Shown: positions 17,030 to 37,667 of the stretch, in pieces
How the letters are laid out: each line of letters opens with the position of its first letter
How positions within the stretch are numbered: the stretch's first letter is position 1
DNA from: Candidatus Micrarchaeota archaeon
GTDB taxonomy: Archaea; Micrarchaeota; Micrarchaeia; Micrarchaeales; CABMGC01
Assembly (NCBI GenBank): GCA_021791245.1
Contig: JAJYWY010000003.1
Coordinates: forward strand, 1 to 62,446
DNA length: 62,446 nucleotides
Direction: 5' to 3'
Notes under the pieces: model-generated
The model's input: only the letters and a program-made list of their open reading frames with translations
What the model was told of the DNA's origin: nothing
Database searches by the model: none
Translations under genes and position numbers: made by a program

Positions 17030-17244
17030 TCGCGCTTTGAGTTAGGCTCATCTACAGAAGATGCAACACAGCAACAATTCTATTCGTTGTGACCAATTAC
17101 TAGTAAACGCTACAAAAACTAATCATTACGTGAGGCACTTGATGCTATTCTCCGCTCTTTTATATACTTCCAATATCCCGACGCATTTAACCTGCCATAA
17201 TAGCTTAACCTTTTTATATATATCTGTTGCACTTAATAGTGAAA

Positions 17245-17817
17245 ATGTGTGATAAAATGACGTTACATGCCAAAACACGGAAAGCACAAAGCGCAATGGA
17301 GTACTTGATGACATACGGTTGGGCTATATTGATCATAGCCGTAGTGTTGGGAGTCCTCTTCAACATAGGTGTATTCAATGGTGCAGGAGCTCTTGGAACA
17401 TCATGTGTAGCATATTCTGGATTCTTATGCTCATCGCCAATACTAAGCCATACTACAGGAAACTTGATAGTGACAATAGGCCAGAATACAGGCACAAACT
17501 GGGCTTCTGCAAATATAGTGTTCGTGCCGCAGGGAAGCACAACATCAGGAGGAGTGCCACAGGTTAGCAGCGACCCACAGATTTCAAGCTTCAATTCAAT
17601 GAACACTTTTAATGGCGGTTCTGTTGGAGGCGCAGCAAATGTTCTAGGTTCATTCAACTCAGGCCAAAGCCAATCTGTAACTCTTGTAACCGGACAAAAC
17701 TCAGGGATAAATACAGGTACGTTGGTATCTGGAGCAATCTGGGCTGCATACACAGTCTCTGGATCGTCAAGCGTATATTACGTCCAGATGGCAACTGCAA
17801 ACCTGAAGGCAGTATAA
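17245..17817 (+). CDS. class III signal peptide (archaeal type IV pilin-like) protein
   Basis: The N-terminus ..KTRKAQSAMEYLMTYGWAILIIAVVLGVLF has a basic tip, a Q-S cleavage-type motif and a hydrophobic helix. The same QSAMEYLMTYGWAILI motif occurs at 36795. The TATA-like ttttatatatat (17211-17222) favours ATG 17245 or 17257 over TTG 17227. Confidence 0.75.
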   Translation: MCDKMTLHAKTRKAQSAMEYLMTYGWAILIIAVVLGVLFNIGVFNGAGALGTSCVAYSGFLCSSPILSHTTGNLIVTIGQNTGTNWASANIVFVPQGSTTSGGVPQVSSDPQISSFNSMNTFNGGSVGGAANVLGSFNSGQSQSVTLVTGQNSGINTGTLVSGAIWAAYTVSGSSSVYYVQMATANLKAV

Positions 17818-18868: not shown

Positions 18869-19399
18869 TTAGGCTGCCACTTTCCTTTCAATGTTTATCT
18901 TGTAAGTGCCTGAAAGCTTTGATGATGCCCTCTTAAGCGCTTCTTTCGCAACGTTTGTTTTATCGGCCTTTACCTTAACTATGAAAACATTCTGGTTTTT
19001 CTTTATTCTTGCAGCTACCATGGATGCCTTACCGAATGAGAGCGTCATTCCCTTAGAGATTCTGTCTGCGCCTGCCCCCATAGCCATTTTCTTCTCGCGT
19101 ACCACGCTGTGCGGATACGTGAGCACTTTCATGAAATAGTTGCCCGGAAGCTCCCTTTCAAGGTGCTTGTTTGCCACCTGTCTTGCAGCTTCTAGCGCAT
19201 TTGATCTTATCTGTACGTACTGGTTGGAGCTCAGCGTGGCGATTGTGTCGAAAGCGCCGGCATCCTTTCCCATATTGAAGACAAGAAGGCTCGTGTGCGG
19301 CAACGCCTTAACGTAGTTCTTCCTCGGTTTTTTTATCGAGTATCTAGCCCATGCCTGGCTGCTTATGTATCTCATGCTTCTTGCAGGTCTAAGCCTCAT
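18869..19399 (-). CDS. rpl10e: 50S ribosomal protein L10e (uL16)
   Basis: MRLRPARSMRYISSQAWARYSIKKPRKNYVKALPHTSLLVFNMG...MAMGAGADRISKGM is the L10e pattern. Confidence 0.9.
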   Translation of the reverse strand: MRLRPARSMRYISSQAWARYSIKKPRKNYVKALPHTSLLVFNMGKDAGAFDTIATLSSNQYVQIRSNALEAARQVANKHLERELPGNYFMKVLTYPHSVVREKKMAMGAGADRISKGMTLSFGKASMVAARIKKNQNVFIVKVKADKTNVAKEALKRASSKLSGTYKINIERKVAA

Positions 19400-19460: not shown

Positions 19461-19757
19461 TTAGAGAGTGTGGTTCTTTATCACTTTTATTGCCTTGTCT
19501 ATCGCTCTCCTTATATCATTTACATTCTTTGCGCCTGTGCATATTATCTTGCCGTTCTTGAAGATCAGCAAAGCGGTCTTTGGCTCATTTATCTTACATA
19601 TTGCACCTGGAAATTGCTCTGGCTCATAGTCTATGTCTGTTGAAGATTTAGCCACCCCGTAGAGGTCTATGTCAACACCGAGATCCGCGCTAGCAACTAT
19701 ATTCACTATTCTGTAGTCTGGATGCAACACTCTGGCTCTCTTCTTAGTTTTTGCCAT
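19461..19757 (-). CDS. single-repeat TATA-box-binding protein homologue ('half TBP', copy 1)
   Basis: 98 aa: IVNIVASADLGVDIDLYGVAKSSTDIDYEPEQFPGAICKINEPKTALLIFKNGKIICTGAKNVNDIRRAIDKAIKVI. This is exactly one TBP repeat (S1-H1-S2-S3-S4-S5-H2) with both DNA-kinking Phe positions (EQFPG, LIFxxGK). No second repeat is in frame or adjacent. Confidence 0.85.
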   Translation of the reverse strand: MAKTKKRARVLHPDYRIVNIVASADLGVDIDLYGVAKSSTDIDYEPEQFPGAICKINEPKTALLIFKNGKIICTGAKNVNDIRRAIDKAIKVIKNHTL

Positions 19758-19852
19758 TTAAACCGTTTATATATCCTTGCGCAAGGTATTTATAGATATT
19801 TTTATATATCACTTTGCTAAATATCCTGTTATCTGTTATATTAGTGTTTTAT

Positions 19853-20137
19853 ATGACCTCAAAAGGAATCTTCTCAAGAAGCACGCGGAAGCTTGCGAAG
19901 CATCACAAGCCATCAAGGCTTACTATAACCGAGAAGATAAAAAGCTTCAGGCCTGGAGACAAAGTAGTAGTTCTTCAAAAAGGCAATTTCCGCGACATAC
20001 CGCACCCAAGATATAGGGGCAGAGTCGGTGATGTTGTGGAGAGGAGGGGCTCGGCATATGTGGTAAAAATAGAGGTATCGAAATCAATAACTAGAAAGCT
20101 TATTGTACCACAGAGACATCTTGAGAGTGTGCGCTAA
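19853..20137 (+). CDS. rpl21e: 50S ribosomal protein L21e
   Basis: MTSKGIFSRSTRKLAKHHK...FRPGDKVVVL....DIPHPRYRGRVGDVVERRGSAYVVKI. I trimmed the start to ATG 19853 within ORF 19814..20137. Confidence 0.9.
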   Translation: MTSKGIFSRSTRKLAKHHKPSRLTITEKIKSFRPGDKVVVLQKGNFRDIPHPRYRGRVGDVVERRGSAYVVKIEVSKSITRKLIVPQRHLESVR

Positions 20138-31109: not shown

Positions 31110-34100
31110 TTGCTTGAGGCATTAATACTAGGATTCATATCTATAATAGTGCCAGGGTTCTTCCTAGCACTAGCCCTGCTTAAGAAGACGAAGCTGCCAA
31201 TGTTCGAAATAGTTATAATGGGTTTCATCTTCGGACTTATATTTCCGCCAACAATGATCTGGCTGGAGGCATACCTAATAAACATTTCACATTTCTTTGC
31301 ATACTCCGAGGCCCTATATAACATAAATATAATAGTGCTTACGATAATAGGCGTTGCGCTCTGCTTCCAGCAGAAGGCATTCGATTTCGACACTAAAAAT
31401 CTTTTCCATCCATTCTCCAGGAACTCAGATGCAAAGTCAATGGCTTCCGAGGCAAAGATAGATATCGAGGTAATAAACAGGCACAAGAAAGAAGAAAACG
31501 ACCTGAAGAAAAGGCATGCTTCGGAGCTTGAACTTATAAATGACCCTGAACAGCGTTCGCGCGTAATGCAGCTTCACAATGACGAAGAAGAAAGGCTGCG
31601 CAGGGAGCATGAACAAGAAGAAGAGATGCTGCTCCAGAGCGTAAAGGAGAACGAGAGAAAGAAACCGTTCCTCAAGTCCGAGGCTTTCGTATTTGCAGTG
31701 CTTTTTGCCATAATGCTGATAACATTCTTCACCAGGATGGCTAGCATAGGCATTGCGCCGCATTTCTTCGAGTTCGATCCTTATTTCGACATGCAGAGCA
31801 CCACGTATATACTTACTTTTGGGCAGCAGCTCCTGCTCGAACACTCGGCATGGCCTACGCTTGTTGCAGGCACGGCGCATACAATACAGCCCATAGTGCC
31901 GTACCTAGAGGCATACTGGTATGACTTGGCGGCAGGGGTCGGAAATGGTGCATTAAACACCACTCTCCTCAGCGACGTAGGCTCCTTTTATCCTCCAATA
32001 ACAGCTGCGCTTCTTGTATTTGTAGTGTTTATGCTGCTTTACCATGATTACGGAAAACTGCCTGGGCTTCTAGGCGCTGCGCTTGTTGCAGGCATGCCTG
32101 CGCTAATAACAACGTTCATAGCAGGAGAGCAGCTGCTGGAGCCATGGGGGATATTCGCCATGTTCTTCTTCTACGCGACTTACCTTCTTGCGGTGCGGAA
32201 TCCAAAAGAATGGCGCTTCGCAGTTCTTGCAGGAATAGCGTTCGCGTCTAATTTCCTCGGGGCGCATTATTTCACAGTCACCACAGGGGTATTTGCAGCA
32301 TACATCTTAGTTCAGGGGCTCATAAATGTATTCAGGAAGAAGCGTGATATGAAGGAATTCTATATGATGAATATAATAGTGCTTGCCGTTATAACGGTCT
32401 TCTACATATTATACGCACCATACGGAGCTACCCTGTCCCAAAGCATATCCTCGATACTTTTTGTGCCCATCATAATAGCATTCCCATTGTTTGCACTCGT
32501 ATTCGTTGCACTCCTCGACTTCATACCGAAATATATGCAAGAACGGAAGATTATAAACAGTGTTGATATATTCACGCAGCTTGGCCTTCTTCTTGTTTTC
32601 GCATTGATAGCCGTACTTCTGATATTATTCACCCCTATTGGAAAGCCAATAAAGGCTTACGTAGCGCTTAGCGCGCATTACACTACGCCATCAATACCTT
32701 TGTTTATGACAGTGCAGGAATATGAGCCTACGGGAATAACATACAACTTCGGAGCACAGGGATTCGGTTATATAGGAGAAAGCATAGGAGGCATACCGAT
32801 AATAATATGGCTTGTGCTCGCTTTATTCACGGTGCTCGCACTTCTATCCATATACTACCAAAAATCAGATTCCAGCGTGCTTTACTTCGCTATGATAATA
32901 CCGCTTGCGGTTGCAGGCATGACAGAAGTCAAGTACCTTCCGCACTTCGGGGTTGGATACATAATAGCTATAGGCGTAATAGTAGGGATAATAATAGAGA
33001 TAGCCAAGCATGACTTCAAGCTCAACTTCAAGCTAGGTTCTCCAGGCTCATTCGATACGCACAAACTCGCAGAGAGGCTGATAATGGCGCTTGTATTCTT
33101 CCTGCTTATCATAGGGTTCCTTCCTTCCATGACATCGATAGTGTCTGCTGCCGCAAATCCGAACTGCAGTTCTATACTGAATAATAGCAACGGGCTTGGA
33201 TACACGCTATACTGCACTACTGTGCCAAACTACTGGATAAATGCTACTACATGGATGAGAGAGAATATAGGGCCTTACGCCCCAAGGATACTATCATGGT
33301 GGGATTATGGGGACTGGATAAACTGGTTCGGGAACAGCAATGCAGTGCTAAGGGGAGACAATGCCGTGGCTACTCTGGATTATGCGACGGCCGCGCAGTA
33401 TGTATTCAGCCCTGTTGACGGATACGGCCCTTCCACTCTTGCAAACTTCATGAACAAGATGCAGGCGCAATACGTGCTTTTCGACAACCAGTTGCAGCAG
33501 AAATGGGAGGCGCTTGATTTCCTTGCGTGCATAGACGTTAACCAGACTTCCATGGCATATGCTACGCAGCAAGGGAGCGCACAGGGCGTTCCTTACTTGT
33601 TAGGCACTTCTGCATGCGAGACAAGCCATGATCCGGTGTATGCACTTATACCAGTTACGCCAAGCAGCGTAAATGCATACTGCAACAACTTTGCGAACGG
33701 CACTGCAATACAGGCATTCCTAACATACGGAAGCAGCATTGAGAACCAGACCTACTGCGTACCCACATCAATTTTCTCCCAGGTCAAACCTGTTCCCATA
33801 TACAGCAGCAATGGAACCAAACTCAACGCGCTGATAATACCTACGCAGCAATTCTTCTACGGCACGGTAAGCTTATATGGGCAGAACTTCGCGGACTTCA
33901 TGGTCATATATACGCCTGGCGCAAACGGCACAATATCTGCCCCAACGCAGTTCTACAACTCTAACTATTACCAGGGATTCATGTTCGGAAAACTAAAGGG
34001 ATATACGCTTGCATATCCTTCCAATTTCTCAGGAATAAACTATATAAACAGCACAAACCCGGTAATGATATTCAGACTCGACAACTATTCTGGGGGCATT

Positions 34101-34157
34101 CCGCCGCACACCCCAAAGCCTTCATGGATAAACAACAACTTCACAGTTCCGGGATGA
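31110..34157 (+). CDS. aglB: oligosaccharyltransferase AglB (STT3 family) with N-terminal extension
   Basis: ILSWWDYGDWINW is the WWDYG catalytic motif, and HFFEFDPYFDMQST is the first-loop DxD-type motif (efDPYfnyR-like). There are about 13 or more TM segments and a sequon-rich C-terminal globular domain. TTG start. Confidence 0.9.
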   Translation: MLEALILGFISIIVPGFFLALALLKKTKLPMFEIVIMGFIFGLIFPPTMIWLEAYLINISHFFAYSEALYNINIIVLTIIGVALCFQQKAFDFDTKNLFHPFSRNSDAKSMASEAKIDIEVINRHKKEENDLKKRHASELELINDPEQRSRVMQLHNDEEERLRREHEQEEEMLLQSVKENERKKPFLKSEAFVFAVLFAIMLITFFTRMASIGIAPHFFEFDPYFDMQSTTYILTFGQQLLLEHSAWPTLVAGTAHTIQPIVPYLEAYWYDLAAGVGNGALNTTLLSDVGSFYPPITAALLVFVVFMLLYHDYGKLPGLLGAALVAGMPALITTFIAGEQLLEPWGIFAMFFFYATYLLAVRNPKEWRFAVLAGIAFASNFLGAHYFTVTTGVFAAYILVQGLINVFRKKRDMKEFYMMNIIVLAVITVFYILYAPYGATLSQSISSILFVPIIIAFPLFALVFVALLDFIPKYMQERKIINSVDIFTQLGLLLVFALIAVLLILFTPIGKPIKAYVALSAHYTTPSIPLFMTVQEYEPTGITYNFGAQGFGYIGESIGGIPIIIWLVLALFTVLALLSIYYQKSDSSVLYFAMIIPLAVAGMTEVKYLPHFGVGYIIAIGVIVGIIIEIAKHDFKLNFKLGSPGSFDTHKLAERLIMALVFFLLIIGFLPSMTSIVSAAANPNCSSILNNSNGLGYTLYCTTVPNYWINATTWMRENIGPYAPRILSWWDYGDWINWFGNSNAVLRGDNAVATLDYATAAQYVFSPVDGYGPSTLANFMNKMQAQYVLFDNQLQQKWEALDFLACIDVNQTSMAYATQQGSAQGVPYLLGTSACETSHDPVYALIPVTPSSVNAYCNNFANGTAIQAFLTYGSSIENQTYCVPTSIFSQVKPVPIYSSNGTKLNALIIPTQQFFYGTVSLYGQNFADFMVIYTPGANGTISAPTQFYNSNYYQGFMFGKLKGYTLAYPSNFSGINYINSTNPVMIFRLDNYSGGIPPHTPKPSWINNNFTVPG

Positions 34158-34205: not shown

Positions 34206-35336
34206 ATGAAGGTACTAATAGCACAACCTTACCTTAACCTTAGAGGGGGCGCGGAAAGGGTGATCCTTGAGATTGCAAAGCACTACGATGCAAAAGTACT
34301 CACAATGGAGTATATAAAGAACTCCACTTTCCCTGAATTTCAGGATGTCGATATAGAGATAATCGGAAAGGACGTGCCTCTTGCCCAGATGCTGCCTTAT
34401 AGAGCGCACCAGGGACTTACTTACGGATACAACTTCTACAACTACAAGGAAACCGAGGATTACGACATAATCAACAGCCACATCTCCCCAAGCGAATGGA
34501 TAAGGCACAAGAACAAGCGCGTACTGTGGTACTGCCATACTCCGCCAAGGGAAGTCTATGACCTTTATACAGAGAGGATGAAAAACAGGAGCACATCAGA
34601 GAAGCTGATATATGCATCCTTCACCAAGGCATACAAGATTATATCGCGCGGAGTAGTTACTGATTTAGAATACATAGCGACAAACAGCAAAAACACGCGC
34701 GACAGGATAAAGAAATACTTCAACAGGGATGCAGCCATAGTAAGCCCCGGCATAGACGCAGGTGAATTCAGGAACAGCGAAGACGGGAAATATTTCCTGT
34801 ATCCTTCAAGAATAGTAGCCAACAAGAGGCAGGATTACGTAATAAATGCATTCAACAGGTTCGTCAGGATATCAGGCAACGAGAACTATAAGCTCGTGCT
34901 TGCAGGTTCGCTCTCGAATAACGATGAACATCACGAATACTACAAGAAGCTTATAAAGATGAAGACGCGGAATATATTGTTCAAGCTCAATGTAGGAGAC
35001 AAGGAGCTTAAAAACCTTTATTCAAACGCAACCGCGGTTCTCTTCGCAGCCATAAACGAGGACTTCGGAATAGTGCCTCTGGAGGCCATGGCGAGCAGCA
35101 AGCCGATAATATCCGTAAATGAGGGCGGGCCTAGGGAAACCATAGTGAATGGAATAACAGGGTATACTGTAGACTCTTATGAAGAGATGGCAGACAGGAT
35201 GAAGTTCATAGTGGAGCATCCATCTATAGCGGAGGAGATGGGCAGGCAGGGGAGGAAGCGCATTGAGAACAACTTCTCATGGAAAGTCTTCTTCAAGAAG
35301 TTCGATGCTCTTGCAAGAAAGGTTGCCGATATGTAG
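34206..35336 (+). CDS. GT4-family (group 1) glycosyltransferase
   Basis: NEDFGIVPLEAMASSKPIISVNEGGPRETI is the EX7E motif region of GT-B retaining glycosyltransferases. Confidence 0.85.
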   Translation: MKVLIAQPYLNLRGGAERVILEIAKHYDAKVLTMEYIKNSTFPEFQDVDIEIIGKDVPLAQMLPYRAHQGLTYGYNFYNYKETEDYDIINSHISPSEWIRHKNKRVLWYCHTPPREVYDLYTERMKNRSTSEKLIYASFTKAYKIISRGVVTDLEYIATNSKNTRDRIKKYFNRDAAIVSPGIDAGEFRNSEDGKYFLYPSRIVANKRQDYVINAFNRFVRISGNENYKLVLAGSLSNNDEHHEYYKKLIKMKTRNILFKLNVGDKELKNLYSNATAVLFAAINEDFGIVPLEAMASSKPIISVNEGGPRETIVNGITGYTVDSYEEMADRMKFIVEHPSIAEEMGRQGRKRIENNFSWKVFFKKFDALARKVADM

Positions 35337-36262: not shown

Positions 36263-36568
36263 TCAGTCTATTACGTACTTTGATATTACCTTTGCGGTGT
36301 ATTCGAGCACCTTCTTCACGTTCGCTTCTGTGTTCGTGCCGGTGCAGATGAGCTTGCCATTCTTGAATAGTATTATCTTGGCCTTCGGCTCCTTAACCGC
36401 GAAGATTGCTCCTGGGAACTGCTCTGGCTCGTAGTCAACCTCCTTGACATTCTTAGATAGCGAATAAAGGTCTATAGTAGCATGCAGGTCAGCGCTGACA
36501 ACTATGTTCTGCACCTTTATGGCAGGTTTCATGTTAAGCTTCCGCTTTTGTTCGTTTTCTTTTGCCAT
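36263..36568 (-). CDS. single-repeat TATA-box-binding protein homologue ('half TBP', copy 2)
   Basis: MAKENEQKRKLNMKPAIKVQNIVVSADLHATIDLYSLSKNVKEVDYEPEQFPGAIFAVKEPKAKIILFKNGKLICTGTNTEANVKKVLEYTAKVISKYV. This is one TBP repeat preceded by a basic tail. ATG 36568 is preferred to TTG 36577. Confidence 0.85.
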   Translation of the reverse strand: MAKENEQKRKLNMKPAIKVQNIVVSADLHATIDLYSLSKNVKEVDYEPEQFPGAIFAVKEPKAKIILFKNGKLICTGTNTEANVKKVLEYTAKVISKYVID

Positions 36569-36794
36569 TAAACCCAATATTTATATCGCACACATATTTA
36601 TAAAGCCTATATGCACATTCGTAAAAGGCAATCTGGCAAAGGAATTTTTCCATGCGCTGATATGTTGGGTAAAAGCCAGCAAATCATATGCCGTTTTTCG
36701 CATCCTATATATTAATGAATACTCCAGAAACAGGCAATTCAAAAAATAAGCAATAGTTATATATTTTGTAGATAAACCATCTAAATGAAGATGT

Positions 36795-37667
36795 ATGCGT
36801 ATTAAGAGCCAATCTGCGATGGAGTACCTTATGACTTACGGATGGGCAATACTCATAATGGCAACAGTAATAGCTGCCTTATACGAACTTGGCGTATTCT
36901 CCATTAAAGGCCCAGCCGCTTCTCCAGGTTCTTGCCAGGTAAACAGGCCTGACGGACCTGGAACAGTAGACTTTATATCTCTCACAGGTCCATGCACAGG
37001 GCAGATGCCGCAGTATGTCGCACAGTTCAATCAGGTTAGTGTATGCACTTCTGGTAATGTCCCAATATATGTAACCTCGATAGGGGAGACAACAATGAAT
37101 CAGCTTACAATAACTGCGTGGGTGTATATAACTAGCGACTCGAATACTAATGGCCTCCTTCATTTAACTACCAATAATTGTGTGCCAGGTAATTTTTGCG
37201 GTATATGGATTAATGGTGCCTCTCACGTAAATATCGGCGCAGGCGATACCCAGGCCAACTATCCGTCAAACATTATTCCGGATAGTTGGTCATTTATTGC
37301 GATAGTACTTAATAATTTAGGCGGTGCAAAAGCATATTTGAATGGCAATCCTGGCACACCAGCTACCTGGAGCGGACCTCTGACAGGCGTAAGCTCTTTC
37401 AACATGCTTGGATACCTTAACGGATGCCCGGATACTTCAGCAGCAAGCATTTCCAACGTCCAAATCTACAACACTGCATTATCCCAAAATGACATTATAG
37501 CGCTTTACCAGGAAGGAATAGGTGGTGCACCCATTAATCTGCAGCATCTTGTAGGATGGTGGCCTCTTAACGGCAATGCAAATGACTATAGCGGAAACGG
37601 CAACGATGGGGCAGCGTCAAACTTAATATATATACAGAATTGGCAGACAGGATACACGGCACCTTGA
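36795..37667 (+). CDS. class III signal peptide (pilin-like) protein with LamG/concanavalin-A-like lectin domain
   Basis: The N-terminus is MRIKSQSAMEYLMTYGWAILIMATVIAALYELGVF. The body reads LTITAWVY.......GLLHL....WSFIAIVLNN.GGAKAYLNG........ISNVQIYNTALSQNDIIALYQEG, which is the LamG pattern. Confidence 0.7.
   Translation: MRIKSQSAMEYLMTYGWAILIMATVIAALYELGVFSIKGPAASPGSCQVNRPDGPGTVDFISLTGPCTGQMPQYVAQFNQVSVCTSGNVPIYVTSIGETTMNQLTITAWVYITSDSNTNGLLHLTTNNCVPGNFCGIWINGASHVNIGAGDTQANYPSNIIPDSWSFIAIVLNNLGGAKAYLNGNPGTPATWSGPLTGVSSFNMLGYLNGCPDTSAASISNVQIYNTALSQNDIIALYQEGIGGAPINLQHLVGWWPLNGNANDYSGNGNDGAASNLIYIQNWQTGYTAP

Follow-up and report, generated by a model that had tools for sequence, protein, structure and literature searches.

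TBP, the TATA-binding protein, belongs to the small set of transcription factors shared by all Archaea and Eukarya, and its two-repeat saddle is the textbook case of duplication and fusion from a homodimeric ancestor that is itself hypothetical. This ancestor was still treated as the prototype in a paper of 2026. The canonical archaeal protein (two copies of PF00352, arCOG01764; P. woesei 1PCZ/1AIS, M. jannaschii 2Z8U) carries both repeats in tandem within one chain of ~180 amino acids (aa). We have analyzed a 62,446-nt contig of a Candidatus Micrarchaeota archaeon (JAJYWY010000003.1; the whole stretch is hereafter called the window) in which two unlinked genes, designated h1 and h2 (Table 1), encode one repeat each. 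Their products, the half-TBPs, resemble canonical TBP in fold, with ~50% identity per repeat, and share with it the DNA-contact residues (Asn and Val of strand S1, two Phe, and Thr of S5) and the YEPEQFPG stirrup. Our analysis indicates that they likely constitute a functional split TBP, in a state that arose secondarily and is no relic of the ancestor.

Stand-alone TBP domains have been described in Archaea. Thermococcales encode monopartite TBP-domain proteins of ~90-97 aa that are highly diverged, form a separate cluster and always occur beside a full-length TBP, while halobacterial TbpA is a non-essential, single-domain near-copy of the full-length TBP of the same species (Brindefalk et al. 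2013, NAR 41:2832, PMC3597702). The half-TBPs have in common with the former a single stand-alone domain, and with the latter a repeat that groups with the repeats of genuine TBP. They differ from the Thermococcales proteins in being canonical in sequence (95-113 bits against canonical repeat profiles, with h1 scoring above many canonical repeats) and in appearing to replace the full-length gene, and from TbpA in belonging to old, lineage-wide orthologous families whose synonymous sites are saturated. Among known TBPs, those nearest to h1 and h2 have two repeats and come from other Micrarchaeota (Anstonellales and others) and from Iainarchaeota; they share an FKNGK motif and a locus divergent from rpl21e, but are covalent proteins of 182-220 aa with unusually similar repeats (N-C identity 0.55-0.94) and gene conversion tracts. 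Outside the h1-h1 fusions described below, the nearest two-repeat proteins are ~50-60% identical and come from other lineages. Like the hypothetical ancestral homodimer, h1 and h2 are single repeats that must pair into a saddle; the difference is that theirs is a secondary state inside a two-repeat clade. In open-access papers and preprints we found no earlier account, for Micrarchaeota or DPANN archaea, of TBPs with one repeat, the only related report being that of Brindefalk et al. on different proteins. A DPANN comparative-genomics paper scores TBP simply as present.

Two single-repeat genes and their families

The h1 protein matches the Pfam TBP profile PF00352 as one domain (E 2.1e-29, 101.7 bits) in which residues 14-95 align to positions 1-84 of the 85-position profile, and h2 likewise contains one domain (E 1.5e-23); both exceed the gathering score of 22.9. 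In a search of PDB sequences, the matches of the half-TBPs were TBPs only, and the 98-aa h1 aligned to each repeat of solved archaeal TBPs separately at ~50% identity (80.4 and 69.8 bits for the two repeats of M. jannaschii 2z8u), which is the behavior expected of a single repeat. The two half-TBPs share 44 of 100 aligned residues by BLASTP, close to the ~45% estimated in an earlier, sequence-only reading of this DNA. That reading had also described h1 as one complete repeat with an S1-H1-S2-S3-S4-S5-H2 pattern, set between rpl10e and rpl21e with no second repeat nearby, and had placed a second single-repeat gene at h2; the Pfam matches, the identification of both neighbors (PF00252 and PF01157) and the structure model below bear it out. 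No third TBP repeat was detected in the window by tblastn of h1 and h2 in all six frames. The gap between h1 and rpl10e is 61 nt and that to the probable rpl21e start is ~95 nt, leaving no room beside h1 for a hidden second repeat, and the 61-nt gap excludes a frameshifted two-repeat gene. An identity of the RNase HIII type was rejected for h2: it scores 22.2 bits against the TBP-like N-terminal domain of RNase HIII (DUF3378, PF11858; cut-off 27), a match to TIGR00716 reaches 19 bits where 161 are required, and the RNase H domain is absent.

Both genes belong to large families. A collection of 5.8 billion proteins yielded 463 relatives of h1 and 378 of h2, and the best 120 of each were almost all 93-140 aa long, those of h1 being nearly all within 93-130 aa. 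Mean core identity is 0.83 and 0.82 within the h1 and h2 families and 0.54 between them, and the h2 family is monophyletic with 100% support in a neighbor-joining (NJ) tree of repeats (300 bootstraps). Purifying selection acts on both families: the proportions of nonsynonymous and synonymous differences (pN and pS) are ~0.14 and ~0.76, and the median ratio of the corresponding substitution rates (dN/dS) is ~0.09 over unsaturated pairs. The h1 and h2 genes share no run of identical codons and differ at a pS of 0.72, so their split is old and sequence exchange between them has ended.

Where the sources of single-repeat proteins are named, among the best 120 of each search, they are metagenome-assembled genomes (MAGs) labeled Candidatus Micrarchaeota, Micrarchaeia, Micrarchaeales or Micrarchaeaceae. 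Four locus-tag prefixes (RXR32, ACP5K9, ACP5RT and QW774) occur in both the h1 and the h2 lists, indicating that the two genes coexist within single genomes, as they do in the window. Every JGI locus with the h2 motif that holds a TBP open reading frame (ORF) is of the single-repeat type (57/57). Lineage labels are disjoint, the single-repeat forms being Micrarchaeaceae or Micrarchaeales and the two-repeat forms Anstonellaceae or Anstonellales. Several MAGs with h1 or h2 (e.g. loci L010 and L027; relatives are numbered L for loci and P for proteins) are labeled 'Candidatus Marsarchaeota', and these labels are unverified. An h2-type gene with a GT4 glycosyltransferase neighbor lies in a methanogen-labeled bin ('Methanothrix sp.', L074), and a Micrarchaeota-type two-repeat TBP lies in a 'Methanobacteriota archaeon' MAG (L019); both bins are probably contaminated by DPANN contigs.

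Neither half-TBP passes the NCBIfam models for full-length TBP (PRK00394 series), the best scores being 101.2 bits for h1 and 83.3 for h2 against cut-offs of 181-347. Over the whole series the two halves reach 80-100 bits, and because these scores fall below every cut-off, PGAP names the proteins 'hypothetical protein'; JGI annotation, unlike that of NCBI, calls them TBP. The naming of half-TBPs is thus an annotation gap for a core transcription factor.

Proposed saddle formation and choice of partners

In solved TBP-DNA complexes, the minor-groove contacts are made by Asn and Val of S1, two Phe and Thr of S5, and the stirrup (Y)EPE(Q/L)FPG contacts TFB or TFIIB in the TBP-TFB(TFIIB)-DNA structures (1AIS/1VOL). 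These features are kept in the half-TBPs. Of 83 core columns, 40 are conserved and identical in both families, including N19, V21, F49, F66 and T74; F49, F66, V21 and G51 are invariant, and at least 90% of sequences across the two families have N19 and T74. EQFPGA and (L/I)(I/L)FKNGK, with both Phe positions noted in the sequence-only reading, are present in h1 and in h2, and the stirrup YEPEQFPGAI is invariant in 29 representatives of the two families. A further 18 columns are fixed within each family and differ between h1 and h2; they cluster in S1, H1, S4 and H2, off the DNA face, and suggest specialized partner or interface surfaces. TATA-like boxes stand 35-52 nt upstream of many start codons in an upstream-motif listing, those of both half-TBP genes included, and from sequence and model the half-TBPs are predicted to bind and bend TATA DNA and to recruit TFB and RNA polymerase.

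AlphaFold2 (AF2) modeling gave the S1-H1-S2-S3-S4-S5-H2 order in each half. A concatenate of h1 and h2, modeled with an alignment of 122 natural two-repeat relatives, reached a predicted local distance difference test score (pLDDT) of 93 and a predicted template-modeling score (pTM) of 0.84, with only the artificial linker disordered; the alignment derives from covalently linked TBPs, and the model therefore speaks to compatibility, not to dimerization. Without an alignment the pLDDT was 35. Superposition of the alignment-based model on solved TBPs, among them that of 1AIS (a complex of TBP, TFB and DNA), gave template-modeling (TM) scores of 0.85-0.92 and root-mean-square deviations of 1.7-2.0 A. 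The half-TBPs are thus modeled as compatible with the canonical saddle.

The explanation that we favor is that h1 and h2 would be a working TBP encoded not as one polypeptide with two repeats but as two subunits with one repeat each. Every such chain of ~100 aa would fold as one S1-H1-S2-S3-S4-S5-H2 lobe, and two lobes would pair non-covalently, S1 strand to S1 strand, into a ten-stranded saddle that inserts two Phe pairs into the TATA box, with the DYEPEQFPGA stirrups recruiting TFB. We consider it probable that h1 and h2 are the cell's TBP, assembled non-covalently in this way. The h1·h2 heterodimer would be the most likely main species, a call that we place near even; it is favored because both genes are constrained in very small genomes, because their fixed differences are complementary, and because of weak N-like and C-like leanings treated below. 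An h1·h1 homodimer may be competent as well, and one of h2·h2 is possible. The functional dimeric TBP proposed in the sequence-only reading is supported in part, in that the genes are real, constrained, saddle-compatible, retain the contact motifs and appear to replace a two-repeat gene, and its dimerization remains a matter of inference.

A natural fusion bears on the choice of partners. A search with the h1+h2 concatenate recovered four proteins of 195-196 aa (P0391-P0394) that consist of two h1-type repeats, 87-94% identical to each other; the same query found no h1-h2 fusion. Three samples yielded one contig each with the fused gene (Table 1), at a locus collinear with the one that holds a 98-aa h1 in a sister genome (P0120, on at least 24 contigs; L093-L095), in the order rpoF, DUF655, rpl21e, TBP, VTT, Pelota, ksgA. 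At the junction, the fusion reads GAG AAC AAG TCG GCA AAG where the single gene ends in GAG AAG AAG TAG and begins with ATG GCA AAG: the stop codon has been lost, ATG has become TCG, the reading frame is kept, and the second repeat retains the former N-terminal tail. The two repeats differ at a pS of 0.49 with a pN/pS of 0.18, and so both have been kept by selection since the fusion. Derived residues specific to the N repeat are common to all four proteins, pointing to one fusion event followed by asymmetric divergence. The fusion exemplifies, in a living lineage, the duplication-fusion step by which TBP is proposed to have arisen, mirroring the passage from the hypothetical homodimer to a protein whose repeats diverge. 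As an in-frame fusion at the h1 locus, it shows that an h1:h1 saddle is viable in nature. No h2 match came from the fusion-bearing samples, among contigs encoding P0221 and in a scan of JGI for the h2 motif, a result that is not decisive.

The strongest rival, which we regard as possible but the less likely reading, is that the genes form two alternative homodimers, an h1·h1 general TBP and an h2·h2 TBP specialized for another promoter class or condition, with no functional heterodimer. In its favor, both lobes can come from h1 alone, as the fusion shows. The two-repeat TBPs of the clade are nearly symmetric (N-C identity 0.71, up to 0.94), so that asymmetry is not needed; single-repeat TBPs outside both families (L020, L021, L029, L032 and L070) may be solitary; and the 18 fixed differences lie on surfaces that do not face DNA. 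Set against this rival, a second general factor is less expected in very reduced genomes, with a single TFB in Mia14; h1 is weakly N-like and h2 weakly C-like, as expected of complementary lobes; and h1 and h2 are retained together wherever this could be checked.

An improbable rival is that h1 and h2 are accessory single-domain paralogues, acting as regulators or competitors beside a full-length TBP encoded elsewhere, in the manner of TbpA or the Thermococcales monopartite proteins. Such proteins are documented, each beside a full-length TBP (Brindefalk 2013), and our coverage of this genome is the 62-kb window. Against it, h1 sits at the very locus of the two-repeat gene of sister lineages, both halves are far nearer to canonical TBP than the Thermococcales proteins are, and no two-repeat protein with a Micrarchaeaceae or Micrarchaeales label occurs among the 120 best two-repeat matches. 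Mia14, the only closed genome with published arCOG counts, has two arCOG01764 proteins, not three, and one TFB, whereas 13 of 14 other DPANN genomes in the published table have one arCOG01764 protein; these counts are of family membership, with the Mia14 protein lengths unverified. Taken together, the occupied locus, the distribution of labels and the Mia14 count make a full-length TBP elsewhere in the genome unlikely, a view that is supported, not proven.

Besides the limit on the Mia14 count and the covalent origin of the AF2 alignment, other points weigh against our preferred reading of h1 and h2 as the subunits of a split TBP. The fusion argues that h2 is not strictly required for a saddle and weakens any version with an obligate heterodimer, and the N-like and C-like signals of the two halves are weak. 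The search for TBP covered the window, and a full-length gene elsewhere in the genome is formally possible. Finally, the proteome of the co-culture of the Micrarchaeon A_DKE with its Thermoplasmatales host B_DKE annotates only the host TBP as a TATA-box factor (bioRxiv 10.1101/2021.04.28.441871, supplementary table), which is consistent with half-TBPs of A_DKE being hidden among its 'hypothetical proteins'.

Origin within a two-repeat group

Other Micrarchaeota (named examples are Anstonellaceae and Anstonellales) carry two-repeat TBPs of 182-220 aa, whose genes lie divergently beside rpl21e, often followed by rpoF, DUF655 and ksgA. The rpl21e-TBP adjacency is found at 9 of 11 two-repeat Micrarchaeota-type loci and 5 of 6 h1 loci, and at none of 44 canonical loci of other archaea, which identifies h1 as the positional orthologue of the two-repeat gene. 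The FKNGK motif is common to all Micrarchaeota and Iainarchaeota repeats, single or double, and this group is split from other archaea with 78% bootstrap support. Together, the motif and the synteny nest the single-repeat forms within the two-repeat group, and on this sequence evidence the single-repeat state is derived, having arisen inside the group formed by Micrarchaeota and Iainarchaeota. We attribute the arrangement to one Micrarchaeota sub-clade, with source labels Micrarchaeales and Micrarchaeaceae, as a derived trait.

The repeats of the FKNGK-type proteins are unusually alike, with a mean N-C identity of 0.71 (n=131, range 0.5-0.94) compared with 0.41 for canonical TBPs (n=174). In four two-repeat genes (L022, L003, L016 and L028), the N and C repeats have 20-31 consecutive codons from the stirrup to S5 in common, flanked by sequence that has diverged even at synonymous positions, which marks gene conversion within the gene. 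Such conversion has erased the signal from which the N or C orthology of h1 and h2 could be recovered. The repeat tree groups the N repeat of a protein with its own C repeat and joins h1 and h2 as weak sisters (58%). Profile hidden Markov models (HMMs) of N versus C repeats give h1 +1.8 bits and h2 -0.3, whereas canonical repeats score +8.5 and -10.9, ~19 bits apart. NCBIfam alignments place h1 on the N half in the top four models and, in 10 of 11 models, h2 on the C half; the same lean is seen in a pair of signature columns (E/Q in S1 and A/V in S4). At most, this hints that h1 leans N-like and h2 C-like. A firm assignment of h1 as the N half and h2 as the C half of a split gene was set aside, since conversion between repeats in the clade removes the signal; raw identity, the NJ tree, the profile HMMs and the signature columns gave a weak lean only. 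Of the secondary gene fission entertained in the sequence-only reading, the secondary, derived state held up; simple fission and loss of a repeat followed by duplication are both left standing.

In the history that we propose, the ancestor would have had a two-repeat gene divergent from rpl21e, with repeats already nearly identical through gene conversion, so that separating the lobes would have carried little cost. One repeat would have stayed at the locus as h1, and a second copy would have settled beside the GT4 gene and diverged as h2.

A far less probable view is that Micrarchaeota never had a two-repeat TBP and that h1 and h2 preserve the primordial monomeric gene, the pre-duplication form that the sequence-only reading had offered as one option. 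Their architecture equals the postulated ancestor, and the two group weakly in the repeat tree. The comparison of the halves with N and C repeats, which that reading had proposed, assigns neither half; this view is contradicted by the distribution, in which the single-repeat forms are nested among two-repeat relatives that share FKNGK and the rpl21e synteny, and the high similarity of repeats is explained by the conversion tracts. On the repeat tree and the synteny, we rejected the relic. Least credible of all is an assembly break, frameshift or decay of one two-repeat TBP into fragments, which the recurrence of the genes and their constraint refute. Chimeras and frameshifts do occur in metagenome assemblies (P0304, L039), but 16.5 kb separate h1 from h2, and each gene has a start, a stop and a TATA-like promoter to itself. 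Orthologues of the same length number in the hundreds, dN/dS is ~0.09, and dozens of contigs of independent origin encode identical proteins, the identical h2 protein being present on at least 24 contigs (46 index blocks) in ENA, NCBI (GCA_027363285.1) and JGI, always with the same neighbors.

Several relatives depart from these patterns. P0304 (127 aa, from the representative library) has an N-terminal half of h2 type and a C-terminal half identical to the h1-type P0034, joined at YEPEQFPGAI; it is probably an assembly chimera across conserved DNA, a real recombinant being less likely. In L039, the second repeat of a Micrarchaeota-type two-repeat TBP runs over two overlapping frames, an apparent frameshift that reflects either sequencing error or a decaying repeat. 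A three-repeat TBP (P0241, 272 aa, N-N-C) in a Methanobrevibacter-like sequence and a four-repeat TBP (P0242, 376 aa) with a duplicated eukaryote-type core are either real expansions or artefacts of assembly or gene models. Single-repeat TBPs outside the h1 and h2 families comprise protein P0329 and those at the loci in Table 1, and for some of them there are close relatives with two repeats that are much alike (P0398, P0407 and P0410, N-C identity 0.80-0.85). This suggests, at the sequence level, independent transitions between one and two repeats in other DPANN lineages.

Loci, feature coordinates and significance

The probable start of rpl21e is the ATG given in Table 1. Its mechanically called ORF opens at a TTG (19814-20137, + strand), the Pfam match to PF01157 begins at residue 14, and the tblastn alignment of the rpl21e orthologue of L093 begins at 19859. 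A diphthamide synthase gene, identified through Pfam, also adjoins the neighborhood of h1, rpl10e and rpl21e. The rpoF and DUF655 genes, companions of rpl21e and TBP in relatives, were not detectable anywhere in the window, and the VTT and Pelota genes, which follow h1 in the P0120 lineage, sit here at 56.1-57.8 kb, indicating rearrangement. At the other locus, the GT4 gene is convergent with h2 and within ~1.3 kb of it in 11 of 12 h2 loci. An ORF of 1015 aa, for which no Pfam family is recorded, is conserved beside GT4 and h2 in relatives L024 and L030 at 55-56% identity, and the gene divergent from and upstream of h2 encodes a Laminin_G_3/ConA-like lectin domain. This lectin-domain protein and that of a gene at 17 kb both start with QSAMEYLMTYGWAILI, a signal motif like that of archaeal type IV pilins (class III).

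Table 1. Features of the window and of the loci of relatives. Entries with an L number refer to coordinates in that locus.
Feature	Coordinates	Strand	Remarks
h1 single-repeat TBP gene	19461..19757	(-)	ATG start, 98 aa; single TBP domain in Pfam
rpl10e (uL16)	18869..19399	(-)	directly downstream of h1; Pfam PF00252, E 4.9e-24
Divergent promoter region common to h1 and rpl21e	19758..19852	.	TATA-like boxes ATATATAA and CTATAAATAC (h1 strand), TTTATATA (rpl21e strand)
rpl21e	19853..20137	(+)	PF01157; probable ATG 19853; synteny anchor of the ancestral TBP locus
h2 single-repeat TBP gene	36263..36568	(-)	101 aa from ATG; in-frame upstream TTG 36577 would give 104 aa
h2 upstream intergenic region	36569..36794	.	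TATA-like box TTTATAAATA ~36 nt upstream of the ATG; no TBP-like coding potential
GT4 glycosyltransferase	34206..35336	(+)	conserved neighbor marking the h2 locus across the clade; Pfam families in relatives
1015-aa ORF	31110-34157	(+)	
Lectin-domain protein	36795-37667	(+)	pilin-like signal motif
Protein with pilin-like signal motif	17227-17817	(+)	
h1-h1 fusion	L090 10001-10591		JGI 3300035696 contig Ga0374055_0001763; also L091, L092
Gene-conversion examples	L022 9998-10573; L003 9992-10450; L016; L028		two-repeat Micrarchaeota TBP genes
h2-type gene in methanogen-labeled bin	L074 9737-10276		
Two-repeat TBP in 'Methanobacteriota archaeon' MAG	L019 9926-10507		Micrarchaeota type
Two-repeat TBP with apparent frameshift	L039 9944-10646		Micrarchaeota type
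Single-repeat TBPs outside the h1 and h2 families	L020 3191-3472; L021 9956-10255; L032 9944-10258; L070 9938-10252		L021 from an Iainarchaeum MAG
Single-repeat TBP outside the h1 and h2 families	L029 9749-10249		155 aa, N-terminal extension

On balance we lean toward the view that there is a whole order-level clade of Micrarchaeota without a covalent two-repeat TBP, in which all transcription would start from a TBP assembled from single-repeat subunits, and that in this DPANN group the TBP gene would move repeatedly between one-repeat and two-repeat states, through the separation of h1 and h2, the h1-h1 fusion and gene conversion. The naming of half-TBPs as 'hypothetical protein' can distort surveys of DPANN gene content as well as markers and phylogenies based on TBP. 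If the split TBP is real, symmetric or non-covalent binding and bending of TATA DNA by TBP would become testable with natural proteins, as would the way in which TFB and the B recognition element (BRE) set promoter polarity. The gain from fusing the lobes could likewise be tested, with the h1-h1 lineage, in which the N repeat is already diverging asymmetrically, as the 'after' state. Half-TBPs would then offer a living, experimentally tractable model of how a pseudo-symmetric TBP arises from a homodimer.

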